From: Escherichia phage HX01
Sequence record: NC_018855.1
Length of the DNA stretch: 64,000 nt
Reading direction: 5' to 3' (one strand)
Part shown: in pieces, positions 43,539 to 48,243 of the stretch
How positions within the stretch are numbered: position 1 is the stretch's first letter
Layout of the letters: every line of letters begins with the position of its first letter
Position numbers and translations under genes: made by a program
Notes under the pieces: model-generated
Database searches by the model: none
What the model was told of the DNA's origin: nothing
What the model saw: the letters and a program-made list of their open reading frames with translations, nothing else

Positions 43539-43901
43539 ATGAAAGCATATCAAATTCTTGAAGGTGTACATAAAGGCACTATTTATTTTGAAGACGGTAC
43601 TCAAGCCCGGATTATCGTCTCTAAGACTTTTAAAGAAGACGCTATTGTAGACCCGGAAATTTTCTACGGTTTGAATGCCCGTGAAATTGAAATTGAACAT
43701 CAACCTAAAGTTAAAATTGAAGGTGGTCAACACCTGAACGTTAACGTTCTGCGTCGTGAAACTCTGGAAGATGCAGTTAAGCATCCGGAAAAATATCCGC
43801 AGCTGACCATCCGTGTATCCGGTTATGCAGTTCGCTTTAACTCTCTGACTCCGGAACAGCAGCGCGACGTTATCGCTCGGACATTTACCGAGAGTCTATA
43901 A
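43539..43901 (+). CDS. Autonomous glycyl-radical cofactor GrcA/YfiD-like
   Basis: C-terminal half ...[49 protein letters not shown] matches E. coli GrcA by recall incl. RVSGY glycine-radical motif; enterobacterial-like codons. Confidence 0.85.
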
Positions 43902-44715: not shown

Positions 44716-45174
44716 ATGACTATCAATTCAGACGTTTTTATCCGCCGTAATAAACTCCGTCGAATCTTTGAAACGGAGTTCCGCAAAATAAATGCCAGTA
44801 TAAAAGATGCTGCAAAGTCTCTTGGACTACCAGGCTTTCATATCAAGTATTCTCAACATCTCTTAGATCGTGCCATCCAGAGAGAAATAGATGAGAACTA
44901 CGTTTTTGAATTATTTCGTAAAGTAAAAAATCATGTTAAAGAAGTTGCAGAATTTTTATCAATGCCGGCACGTCCAGATGTTGATGAAGATTTTGTCGAA
45001 GGTGTTGAATATCGCCCAGGCCGTTTAGAAATAACTGACGGAAATCTTTGGTTAGGACTTACAGTTTGTCGCGAAAATCCTGCATTCAAAATGAAGACTC
45101 TTCAATGCAGAATGGCTATTATTAACAGTAAACGACTACCAGGAAAAGCTTCTAAAGCAGTGATTAAAATCTAG
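44716..45174 (+). CDS. regB: Endoribonuclease RegB
   Basis: MTINSDVFIRRNKLRR...HLLDRAIQREIDE... matches T4 RegB by recall. Confidence 0.9.
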   Translation: MTINSDVFIRRNKLRRIFETEFRKINASIKDAAKSLGLPGFHIKYSQHLLDRAIQREIDENYVFELFRKVKNHVKEVAEFLSMPARPDVDEDFVEGVEYRPGRLEITDGNLWLGLTVCRENPAFKMKTLQCRMAIINSKRLPGKASKAVIKI

Positions 45175-45182
45175 AGGTAAAC

Positions 45183-45725
45183 ATGAGAAAAGCACTACTC
45201 GCTGGTCTATTTGCTCTTTCATTATCAGCACATAGCTCCGAGCATACTTTTAGTAATGTCCAACTCGATAACTTGAATTATGCTTATCAGTTTGGGGAAC
45301 AGTTTTCTAAGGACGGAAAATTTAAAACGCATGAAAATATGCATAAGAAAGGACTTGGATACATAATGGCCGCAATACTATGGCAGGAATCATCTGCCGG
45401 TATTAATCTTAAAGATAAGAAAGGTCACCATGCGTATGGAATGTTCCAAAACTATCTACCAACAATGAGGGCAAGAGTTAACCAGCTTGGTTATAATATG
45501 ACTGATGCCCAAATTAAGAAAATGCTATCTAAGCGGTCTAATTCAGCAAGATGGGCTTATATCGAATTTTCTTATTGGTTAAATATACATAACGGGGATA
45601 TAAGGAAAGCCTTATCCTCATATAATGCGGGATGGAAGACAAGTGCTGGAAGTAAATATGCTTCTGAAGTCCTAGAAAAGGCCAATTACCTTAAATCAAA
45701 TAAACTACTGGAAATAAAAGAATGA
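45183..45725 (+). CDS. Secreted lytic-transglycosylase-like (SLT domain) protein
   Basis: Signal peptide MRKALLAGLFALSLSAHS; motifs WQESS, YGMFQ, SYNAGW typical of SLT domains. Confidence 0.6.
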   Translation: MRKALLAGLFALSLSAHSSEHTFSNVQLDNLNYAYQFGEQFSKDGKFKTHENMHKKGLGYIMAAILWQESSAGINLKDKKGHHAYGMFQNYLPTMRARVNQLGYNMTDAQIKKMLSKRSNSARWAYIEFSYWLNIHNGDIRKALSSYNAGWKTSAGSKYASEVLEKANYLKSNKLLEIKE

Positions 45726-46069
45726 CCAAAATGTTGGCTTTAATAGTTGGCTTGGTTTCATTTAACGCTCTTGCTAATACTACATATACTGATGTAACGG
45801 AGTATACAAACAGAACGGCGTCTGATTATTGTGGTAAAAGTCAAGAGTGTAAAGTAGATTTTTCACAAAAATTGTTATATGCGTATAAAGACGGAGAAAA
45901 AGATGGGGCGTCTAGTAGGTTCAAGGCGTCTACCTTAATTAAAAGATACTATAAAAAATGGCAAATATTAGAATGCTCGGTGGCGGAACCTAAAGATAAG
46001 GCAGCATGCAATTCTATGGTGGACCGTCTAGTTGACTCTTATAATAGAGGACTTGCAGCAAGTGATTAA
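45722..46069 (+). CDS. Secreted Cys-containing hypothetical protein
   Basis: 115 aa with N-terminal signal peptide and four Cys. Confidence 0.5.
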   Translation: MTKMLALIVGLVSFNALANTTYTDVTEYTNRTASDYCGKSQECKVDFSQKLLYAYKDGEKDGASSRFKASTLIKRYYKKWQILECSVAEPKDKAACNSMVDRLVDSYNRGLAASD

Positions 46070-46529
46070 AAACTATATCAAGGGCGATATTGTCGCCCTG
46101 TTTTCTAAAGGTAATAATATTGCTCATGGGTGCAATTGTTTTCATACAATGGGCGCCGGTGTAGCAGGTCAATTAGCAAAGGCTTATCCAAAAATTTTAG
46201 AAGCCGATAAACTTCAAACCGAATTCGGAGACGAGTCTAAACTTGGGACTTATTCGGTTTATGAAAAATATTTTAAGACCCATAAAGCTTATTGCTTTAA
46301 TCTTTATACACAGTTTGAGCCGGGACCTAATTTTGAGTACTCTGCTTTAATGAATTGTATAATAGAATTAAATGAATTCGGAAAAAATAAGATAACAAAG
46401 CCTGTAATTTATATGCCAAGAATTGGTGCGGGTATTGGTGGCGGAAACTGGGATGTCATCGAAGAGATTTTAGATACGTATTCCACTAAACTAGAAATTG
46501 TGATTGTTGATTGGGAACCATTATTATGA
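46032..46529 (+). CDS. Macrodomain (ADP-ribose-binding/hydrolase) protein
   Basis: GDIVALFSKGNNIAHGCNCFHTMGAGVAGQLA and PRIGAGIGGG resemble macrodomain signature loops; start ambiguous (TTG 46032 or GTG 46062). Confidence 0.65.
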   Translation: MTLIIEDLQQVIKNYIKGDIVALFSKGNNIAHGCNCFHTMGAGVAGQLAKAYPKILEADKLQTEFGDESKLGTYSVYEKYFKTHKAYCFNLYTQFEPGPNFEYSALMNCIIELNEFGKNKITKPVIYMPRIGAGIGGGNWDVIEEILDTYSTKLEIVIVDWEPLL

Positions 46530-46920: not shown

Positions 46921-47114
46921 TTACTCGCGAACAAAAGAACGAAATATTATTTTTAGTTGGTGAAATTATTAGTTTAGAAAAGGATTTGTCTTTTGAATTA
47001 TCTTCTGATTATGGAGATGCCGAAACATATTACGAATTAGTAAAATCTATCGATAAAGCTGAAAATGATTTGGAAACATATTTAGAAAATTTAACTAAGG
47101 ACTCTTATGGCTAG
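46917..47114 (+). CDS. Small helical protein, paralogue B
   Basis: 65 aa MITREQKNEILFLV...; tandem to paralogue A. Confidence 0.45.
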   Translation: MITREQKNEILFLVGEIISLEKDLSFELSSDYGDAETYYELVKSIDKAENDLETYLENLTKDSYG

Positions 47115-47688
47115 TTTAATTTTTACATATGCCGCTATGAACGCTGGTAAGTCTGCTTCATTACTTACTGCCGCACATAACTATAAAGAACGTGGCATGG
47201 GTGTATTAGTTCTTAAACCGGATATTGATACTCGCGATTCAAAAGGTGAAATAGTCTCTCGTATTGGTATTCGTCAGGACGCCAATATAATTACAAAAGA
47301 CATGGATATCTTTGAATTCTATAAATGGGCTGCAGCACAAAAGGATATTCATTGTGTATTTGTTGACGAAGCTCAGTTCTTAACTACTGAAAAGGTGTAT
47401 CAACTTAGTCGTATTGTTGACGTATACAATGTGCCGGTAATGGCATATGGACTACGAACAGATTTTAAAGGTAATCTATTTGAAGGTTCTCAAGCATTAA
47501 TGGCTATTGCCGATAAGCTTGTTGAACTTAAAGGTGTCTGTCATTGCGGTAAAAAAGCCACAATGGTAGCTAGAGTCACGGAAGATGGACTTCCAATTAC
47601 AGATGGCAGTCAAATTGAAATTGGTGATACCGATAGATATGTGTCATTATGCCGGAAGCATTGGAATGATTTGACAGGGTTGTTATAA
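47107..47688 (+). CDS. tk: Thymidine kinase
   Basis: MASLIFTYAAMNAGKSASLL... 193 aa, matches T4 Tk by recall. Confidence 0.92.
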   Translation: MASLIFTYAAMNAGKSASLLTAAHNYKERGMGVLVLKPDIDTRDSKGEIVSRIGIRQDANIITKDMDIFEFYKWAAAQKDIHCVFVDEAQFLTTEKVYQLSRIVDVYNVPVMAYGLRTDFKGNLFEGSQALMAIADKLVELKGVCHCGKKATMVARVTEDGLPITDGSQIEIGDTDRYVSLCRKHWNDLTGLL

Positions 47689-47940: not shown

Positions 47941-48243
47941 ATGGCCTTAAGAGCGATAGCTGTCATGGCGATGCTGGGGTTTTTTGCAGCAACAACTCCT
48001 AACGTTGGTACTGCGTACACCGACCCATATTTTGATAACTTTATGGAATCAGGGATTAAAAACGTATATACTTTGTTTGAAATTCAAAATGTCGAGAATT
48101 CTGAAAAATTCTATAAGTATATGGCAAAGCATTACAAAAATAGCCCCTGTGATGATGCATTTGAATGCCATGAACAAGGCATAAAAACTGCCAGACAATT
48201 TGCCGAGTTCATGAAAATAAAATTAGAGCCTACATCTATCTAA
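47941..48243 (+). CDS. rI: Lysis-inhibition regulator RI (antiholin)
   Basis: MALRAIAVMAMLGFFAA... signal-anchor then ...DPYFDNFMESGIKNVYTLFE... resembles T4 RI. Confidence 0.8.
   Translation: MALRAIAVMAMLGFFAATTPNVGTAYTDPYFDNFMESGIKNVYTLFEIQNVENSEKFYKYMAKHYKNSPCDDAFECHEQGIKTARQFAEFMKIKLEPTSI

Follow-up and report, generated by a model that had tools for sequence, protein, structure and literature searches.

The vs.1–vs gene pair of Escherichia phage HX01: a predicted exported lytic transglycosylase and a probably exported protein listed as a valyl-tRNA synthetase modifier

In a 64,000-nucleotide stretch of Escherichia phage HX01 (sequence record NC_018855.1; hereafter the window, with all positions given for the whole stretch), we analysed two overlapping open reading frames (ORFs) on the plus strand, which sequence comparison shows to be orthologs of the phage T4 early genes vs.1 (45183-45725, 180 amino acids) and vs (45722-46069, 115 amino acids). 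The explanation that best accounts for our results, and to which we assign a probability of roughly 0.68, is that Vs.1 is an exported lytic transglycosylase and that Vs is also exported, disulfide-bonded and situated in the cell envelope. Vs is listed as a modifier of host valyl-tRNA synthetase, and its conserved signal peptide and four cysteines predict a periplasmic protein, which is at odds with binding to a cytoplasmic enzyme; taken at face value, this topology and the function on record exclude each other. Both genes are already catalogued in T4, and the pair is ordinary apart from this conflict over the export of Vs. The interest of the locus lies in the topology of Vs and in Vs.1 as one of a very widespread group of phage proteins that look like exported murein enzymes.

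The identification of the pair rests on the similarity of each ORF to its T4 counterpart and on the T4-like flanks of the locus. The first ORF shares 82% identity with T4 Vs.1 over 180 amino acids and matches PHROG 600 over residues 1-178 (E-value 1.9e-67), and the second shares 68% identity with T4 Vs and matches PHROG 1256, 'valyl tRNA synthetase modifier', with an E-value of 1.8e-35. The gene order regB–vs.1–vs–tk.4(adfM)–tk agrees with that of T4, a conserved block in a Tevenvirinae phage; together, the ORF identities and the flanking regB, tk.4 and tk genes mark the pair as the vs.1–vs of a T4-type phage. Along its full length, this region of the window matches many Escherichia phages at 98.4-98.6% identity, AV117 and O157 typing phage 3 among them, and one of these near-identical phages, vB_Eco_mar005P1, is filed under Mosigvirus. 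A first-pass annotation made from the sequence had placed both ORFs exactly at the coordinates given above; it correctly described the second as carrying a signal peptide and four cysteines (residues 37, 43, 85 and 96) but did not recognise in it the classical T4 gene vs.

Fold, active site and export of Vs.1

Profile matches and a structural model together show Vs.1, at the level of sequence-based prediction, to be a single-domain protein with the glycoside hydrolase family 23 (GH23)/SLT fold. The Pfam SLT profile (PF01464) aligns with residues 61-154 of the HX01 protein at an E-value of 1.1e-3 and a score of 19.0 bits, against a gathering cut-off of 21.3; the same profile matches 33 of 35 diverse Vs.1 homologs at E ≤0.01, with a best value of 1.3e-7, and several Vs.1 homologs carry a precomputed PF01464 assignment. 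NCBIfam and PADLOC searches gave no match for Vs.1. An AlphaFold2 model built from the 35-homolog alignment reached a mean predicted local distance difference test score (pLDDT) of 90.7 and displays an all-alpha, lysozyme-like fold of the GH23 type that includes a small beta-hairpin. When this model was compared with the PDB using Foldseek, the top hits were MltD, g-type lysozyme, a GH23 chitinase and Slt, with probabilities of about 1 and E-values of about 1e-2.

We also examined residue conservation across the 35 homologs, which share 39-82% identity. Invariant in all of them are E69, S71, G86, Q89, N90, Y147, N148, G150 and Y159. Family-1 lytic transglycosylases are marked by the motifs E-S, G-x-x-Q and Y-N-x-G and by a tyrosine, and Vs.1 carries all of them, as E69-S, GMFQ, SYNAG and Y159. 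The predicted catalytic domain that holds these motifs (E-S, G-M-F-Q, S-Y-N-A-G and Y159) spans approximately residues 59-172 (45357-45698, plus strand), and the predicted catalytic acid/base, Glu69, is encoded by the GAA codon at 45387-45389 (plus strand) and lies at the C-terminal end of the helix formed by residues 59-70. Profile alignment with hhalign sets E69 on E505 of the Slt70 precursor (E478 of the mature enzyme) and on E64 of MltE, and GMFQ on GLMQ; as the statistics of these alignments are weak (E-values of 0.11-0.14 against Slt70 and MltE), they were used for residue register only.

From the fold, the motifs and the position of the glutamate, we consider it very probable that Vs.1 belongs to the class of GH23 lytic transglycosylases, and it would act as a soluble periplasmic enzyme. 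An improbable alternative is that it retains the GH23 fold but acts as a hydrolytic muramidase, a chitinase-like glycosidase or a non-catalytic murein binder, as the sub-threshold Pfam score of the HX01 protein might suggest. Against this stand the invariance of all four family-1 transglycosylase motifs and the alignment of E69 with the catalytic glutamates of Slt70 and MltE. The distribution of acidic residues points the same way. Lysozymes of the g-type use an aspartate that follows the catalytic glutamate, and no invariant aspartate of this kind, nor any second invariant acid near E69, is present in the 35 homologs, in which E128 is the only other invariant acidic residue; the lack of an invariant acid near E69 would thus favour a transglycosylase over a hydrolase of the g-type lysozyme kind.

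The first-pass annotation had read the motifs WQESS, YGMFQ and SYNAGW, which we find at residues 67-71, 85-89 and 146-151, as signs of an SLT-like murein enzyme distinct from the gp5 tail lysozyme and the e endolysin. That reading is borne out by the fold, by the catalytic glutamate, which is present, invariant and in register with those of Slt70 and MltE, and by the conserved signal peptide. The distinction drawn from the two T4 lysozymes holds as well, in that e and gp5 belong to GH24 and Vs.1 to GH23. The SLT-like nature of vs.1 is itself already published: a 2006 study (PMC1524935) reported a marginal SLT match for six vs.1 orthologs and described it as corroborating previous PSI-BLAST hits between T4 vs.1 and a lysozyme domain. 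In public databases, some records and UniRef clusters name Vs.1 'endoribonuclease' or 'site-specific RNA endonuclease', a label that seems to have come from the neighbouring regB.

Export of both proteins was assessed with a crude heuristic of our own, which is not SignalP and which demands positive charge in the n-region, then a hydrophobic core 8 or more residues long and a -3/-1 site, with no membrane segment later in the protein. By this measure both ORFs show the complete pattern of Sec export, n-, h- and c-regions followed by a cleavage site with no further membrane segment, in agreement with the signal peptides proposed for them in the first-pass annotation. The signal peptide of Vs.1 (45183-45236, plus strand) comprises residues 1-16 or 1-18, with MRK at its start, the h-region ALLAGLFALSLSA and cleavage at LSA|H or AHS|S; that of Vs (45722-45775, plus strand) comprises residues 1-18, with MTK, the hydrophobic stretch MLALIVGLVSF and cleavage at NALA|N. 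The pattern is shared by 112 of 118 full-length members of the Vs.1 family, the six failures looking like mis-called starts, and by 54 of 55 full-length members of the Vs family. To gauge its selectivity within the window, we applied the heuristic to all 156 ATG-initiated ORFs of at least 60 amino acids, of which six passed: three have a wrong strand or reading frame, and the others are vs.1, vs and rI. The ortholog of the antiholin gene rI (47941-48243, plus strand), with its signal-peptide-like N-terminus, serves as a positive control because T4 RI is reported, in the title of PMC8385771, to have a cleavable signal peptide.

After cleavage, Vs.1 would have a predicted mass of about 18.7-18.9 kDa and an isoelectric point of 9.6. 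A lipoprotein form of Vs.1 was considered and rejected, as the protein has no lipobox cysteine. In the mechanism that we propose, the Sec system would export Vs.1 and set it free in the periplasm, where Glu69, as the sole acid/base, would cut the bond between N-acetylmuramic acid (MurNAc) and N-acetylglucosamine in host murein and leave 1,6-anhydro-MurNAc ends, with the enzyme acting on murein from early in infection.

Topology of Vs and its listed function

Vs is a small four-helix protein with relatives in 794 phage records, and all of its database relatives carry PF26829. A narrow Vs profile retrieved 7 clusters among 1.84 billion representatives and a broader one 59 clusters, all of them PF26829; in the broader set the longest contigs, of 154-178 kb, have the size of phage genomes, all others being short pieces of metagenomes, and no bacterial context that might hint at a function was found among the 59 clusters. 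More distant members come from Jiaodavirus, Slopekvirus and Acinetobacter Lazarusvirus phages, and these surveys show the family, as far as sequence relationships go, to be confined to T4-like phages. Searches for relatives of Vs with phmmer and a profile hmmsearch against PDB sequences gave no meaningful match, and searches of NCBIfam and PADLOC gave none.

The AlphaFold2 model of Vs (pLDDT 84.5) contains helices at residues 15-37, 41-64, 69-85 and 90-114. Confidence is 83-97 per ten-residue block beyond residue 20 and falls below 50 for residues 1-15, which places the signal stretch outside the fold. The charge distribution of the protein is informative in the same respect: K3 is the sole positive residue before the hydrophobic stretch, and acidic residues follow it, so that by the positive-inside rule the folded domain should point into the periplasm with or without cleavage of the peptide. 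Computed masses are 12.9-13.1 kDa for the precursor and 11.0 kDa for the mature form of 97 amino acids. Methionines occur only at M1, M4 and M99, and a cytoplasmic isoform made from an internal start was rejected for want of a suitable one. T4 Vs bearing an N-terminal His tag ended up in cytoplasmic inclusion bodies of E. coli (PMC8076793), an insolubility that fits a protein dependent on export but is no proof of it.

Exactly four cysteines occur in the mature part of 53 of the 55 full-length members. The first pair, C37 and C43 (45830-45850, plus strand), flanks the turn between helices 1 and 2 and is kept in every aligned full-length member; the second, C85 and C96 (45974-46009, plus strand), flanks the turn between helices 3 and 4 and is invariant in two Vs alignments. 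Both pairs are local, with a spacing that varies between members, and this pattern suits two disulfides that staple the bundle. Taken together with the export signal, these features make it likely that Vs is exported and disulfide-bonded, and hence that it would probably act in the cell envelope.

This topology must be weighed against the function that the literature gives to Vs. Among the oldest 'host-modifying' genes of T4 is vs, and the purified tau factor was a protein of about 10 kDa. If that value is right, the mature mass of 11.0 kDa comes nearer to it than the precursor mass does, which suggests processing. Vs may indeed be this factor, binding host valyl-tRNA synthetase in the cytoplasm and altering the stability of that enzyme, an account that we hold to be a serious contender, if somewhat short of even odds. 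The hydrophobic N-terminus would in that event be unused for export, or export would be partial, and the adjacency to vs.1 would reflect the packing of T4 genes, whose early members are generally crowded with overlaps such as the 8 nucleotides shared by tk.4 and vs. Every annotated record names Vs as modifying valyl-tRNA synthetase, and direct binding to the host enzyme is stated in PMC8076793, which cites Muller & Marchin 1975/1977. Furthermore, in the HIDEN-SEQ transposon preprint (10.1101/2025.11.20.689424; Data S3, Data S8 and Extended Data Table 6), a vs knockout is specifically defective in M9, a medium in which amino-acid supply limits growth. This phenotype, together with biochemistry and genetics dating from the 1970s, is the chief support for the cytoplasmic role. 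What this account leaves unexplained is the Sec-type signal in 54 of 55 full-length members, the four cysteines kept in 53 of 55, an N-terminus that the structural model leaves outside the fold, charges that put the domain outside the cytoplasm and the lack of an internal methionine from which a signal-less form could start. By these predictions (signal peptide, charges, cysteines and starts), Vs does not have the cytoplasmic location expected of a protein that modifies valyl-tRNA synthetase. A literature search for evidence tying the genetic vs locus to this ORF returned only papers that repeat the annotation, the primary work of the 1970s lying outside that search.

We tentatively put forward, at odds nearer one in three than one in two, a stronger form of the envelope reading, in which the ORF labelled 'valyl-tRNA synthetase (modifier)' in about 800 phage records is an exported, disulfide-bonded envelope protein. 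The 'modification' of valyl-tRNA synthetase would then have been assigned to the wrong ORF, would arise only after cell breakage or would be indirect. The real work of Vs would lie in the envelope, probably alongside the exported Vs.1 transglycosylase, and the protein may be one element of a larger cluster directed at the envelope, which extends in some phages as far as the antiholin gene rI. The annotation of vs may accordingly be wrong or incomplete, and if Vs is truly periplasmic, then both a 50-year-old annotation and the reading of the 2025 minimal-medium result need revision. A separate kind of error is found in many GenBank records, which name Vs 'valyl-tRNA synthetase', that is, the enzyme and not its modifier.

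Vs.1 and Vs as possible partners

The ATG of vs and the stop codon of vs.1 share the ATGA at 45722-45725 (plus strand; read from the sequence), an arrangement through which expression of vs is probably tightly linked to that of vs.1 by translational coupling. An overlapping or abutting junction between the vs.1 stop and the vs start (TAATG or 8 nucleotides) is likewise present in T4, KpV477 and Acinetobacter phage fHyAci03, the last of which keeps the two genes adjacent even with neither regB nor tk.4 close by. Across the loci that we examined, vs lies directly 3' of vs.1 in 25 of the 26 that carry vs, and vs was never seen without vs.1 nearby; in Klebsiella phage Miro (Slopekvirus), three genes lie between the two.

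The reverse does not hold, and co-occurrence is thus not obligate: vs has vs.1 nearby, but Vs.1-like genes often occur without vs. Relatives of Vs.1 are found in 2058 phage records, and no Vs-like neighbour was found beside the Vs.1-like gene in Aeromonas phage avDM2, in Kuttervirus (Ackermannviridae), in Felixounavirus or in a Vibrio phage. The Vs.1-like proteins of Kuttervirus, Felixounavirus and the Vibrio phage keep both the signal peptide and the E-S motif, and their genes (L031:1708-2325, L032:1708-2256 and L033:1747-2301) are all annotated as hypothetical. Vs.1-like proteins thus form a very widespread family, present in more than 2000 phage records and at least three groups of myoviruses, whose members look like exported murein enzymes and which in T4-like phages are encoded in the early region. 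Candidate roles for these proteins in infection include superinfection exclusion, lysis inhibition and a remodelling of the wall while the latent period lasts.

In two of the phages, a third predicted exported protein is encoded after vs, namely in fHyAci03 (L006:2785-3784) and in Klebsiella phage KpV477 (L005:2809-3201). It has 130-141 amino acids, a signal peptide and two conserved cysteines, and the two versions share about 30% identity; a homolog was sought in the window and not found. The fHyAci03 genes form a contiguous, envelope-targeted run: vs.1 and vs come first, followed by the third exported protein, then by one whose N-terminus holds a hydrophobic segment, and lastly by rI.

The HIDEN-SEQ preprint provides fitness data for both T4 genes. 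Neither vs nor vs.1 is essential; when M9 is compared with LB, no gene loses more insertions than vs, and plating on M9 is poor for a clean vs knockout. According to Data S8, the mean count for vs is 26.6 in LB and 5.0 in M9 (log2 fold change -2.19; p 0, adjusted p 0), and that for vs.1 is 22.6 in LB and 11.9 in M9 (log2 fold change -0.87; p 0.0055, adjusted p 0.155). In LB itself, insertions in the two genes are about 10-fold fewer than in their neighbours regB (179), tk.4 (290) and vs.3 (652). From the reference plate-grown library to liquid LB, counts fall about 4-fold in both, from 103 to 26.6 for vs and from 76 to 22.6 for vs.1, and those of vs.3 and vs.4 stay constant. This parallel cost goes undiscussed in the passages of the preprint covered here; it would be expected if the two genes share a pathway, or else if insertions in vs.1 are polar on vs.

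The first-pass annotation had further suggested that the second ORF regulates or inhibits the first. On this proposal, Vs would be a periplasmic, immunity-like partner that restrains Vs.1, much as T4 Spackle acts on gp5 or Tsi3 on Tse3. Several features recommend it: both proteins are predicted to be exported, their genes overlap and stay adjacent even in the rearranged Acinetobacter phage, vs does not occur without vs.1 nearby, and an early exported murein enzyme would have to be kept from lysing the cell. The greater depletion of vs (-2.19) than of vs.1 (-0.87) in M9 also agrees with it, within the data of the preprint cited. However, Pfam, PADLOC and NCBIfam yielded no match of Vs to Ivy, MliC/PliC, PliG, PliI or any other family, and similarity of Vs to known inhibitors of lysozymes or transglycosylases was sought in sequence and in fold and not found. 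Exported Vs.1-like enzymes moreover lack a Vs neighbour in the Aeromonas, Kuttervirus, Felixounavirus and Vibrio phages and are three genes removed from it in Slopekvirus. The fitness data fit poorly as well, for an antidote model predicts that loss of vs.1 should be neutral, whereas vs.1 and vs are depleted alike in LB (22.6 and 26.6, against 179-652 for neighbours); as loss of vs.1 is not neutral in those data, a pure model in which Vs neutralises a toxic Vs.1 goes unsupported. We therefore regard inhibition of Vs.1 by Vs as improbable. Vs, probably acting in the envelope, may share a pathway with Vs.1 instead of serving as an antidote to it, although we hold such a shared pathway to be less likely than not.

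Several points weigh against our preferred reading, in which Vs.1 is an exported transglycosylase and Vs an exported, disulfide-bonded envelope protein. For Vs.1, the Pfam SLT score of 19.0 bits lies under the cut-off of 21.3, the hhalign E-values against Slt70 and MltE are weak, and phmmer and profile hmmsearch runs of Vs.1 against PDB sequences did not find a transglycosylase. Export of both proteins was judged by our own heuristic rather than by SignalP. The four cysteines of Vs sit at one end of the bundle and may hold a metal rather than pair as disulfides, and the adjacency of vs.1 and vs says little about a functional link when the genomes compared are syntenic and close relatives. In the literature, vs is credited with modifying valyl-tRNA synthetase, a cytoplasmic target (PMC8076793), and the minimal-medium defect of the vs knockout in the preprint fits a role in amino-acid supply or tRNA charging as well. 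Finally, the depletion of vs.1 insertions in the same data may be a polar effect on vs.

Neighbouring genes and closest known systems

Upstream of the pair lies the regB ortholog (44716-45174; Pfam REGB_T4, E-value 3e-69), whose stop codon (45172-45174) overlaps the GAGG Shine-Dalgarno sequence of vs.1 (45174-45177, plus strand; read from the sequence), 5 nucleotides upstream of the ATG. A promoter scan of the region gave candidates no better than those in shuffled sequence. Farther upstream, a vs.6-type ORF of 120 amino acids (43539-43901, plus strand) sits where T4 has a gene whose annotation reads GrcA-like glycyl-radical cofactor and which is conserved in the same block.

Downstream, the tk.4 ortholog (46062-46529, plus strand) begins with GTG and overlaps vs by 8 nucleotides. 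It encodes a macro domain (Pfam Macro, E-value 2e-6) and resembles the DarG antitoxin (NCBIfam NF048014, E-value 1e-7), and T4 tk.4 is named AdfM, an anti-DarTG2 factor, in the HIDEN-SEQ preprint (10.1101/2025.11.20.689424). A terminator-like hairpin at 46081-46099 (plus strand), AGGGCGATATTGTCGCCCT, followed by GTTTTCT, lies just past the vs stop and within the first codons of tk.4, and it could serve in transcription attenuation or in the control of tk.4 translation. The tk gene (47107-47688) flanks the locus, as in T4.

The closest known relatives of the two proteins are their T4 counterparts. T4 Vs.1 (NP_049725; PHROG 600; 'uncharacterized 20.7 kDa protein') has the same length, the same place between regB and vs, the same SLT motifs and a signal peptide, and as an ortholog it shows no difference of substance. 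T4 Vs (NP_049724; PHROG 1256; PF26829) likewise shares the length of 115 amino acids, the place after vs.1, the four cysteines and the signal peptide, and does not differ from the HX01 protein in these respects. Similarity of Vs to Spackle, Ivy, MliC/PliC, PliG, PliI and Tsi3 is confined to architecture: like them, Vs is small, predicted to be exported, contains cysteines and is encoded beside a gene for a murein enzyme. It differs from them in lacking similarity of sequence or fold, in that the enzyme often occurs without Vs and in fitness data that do not fit an antidote.

Vs.1 finds its nearest characterized relatives among the family-1 GH23 transglycosylases, which include Slt70 and MltE of E. 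coli, MltF and Slt of P. aeruginosa, and small 'specialised' enzymes of the EtgA type. With these it shares the E-S, G-x-x-Q and Y-N-x-G motifs, the glutamate at the end of a helix and a periplasmic location, which in the case of Vs.1 is predicted. It is set apart from them by an identity of only 13-18%, by its sub-cut-off Pfam score and by the absence of a lipobox, a LysM domain and a superhelical domain, and unlike them it is encoded in the early region of a virulent phage. A feature of its own is a conserved N-terminal helix specific to the phage family, marked by F23, Q27, N30, A34 and G38.

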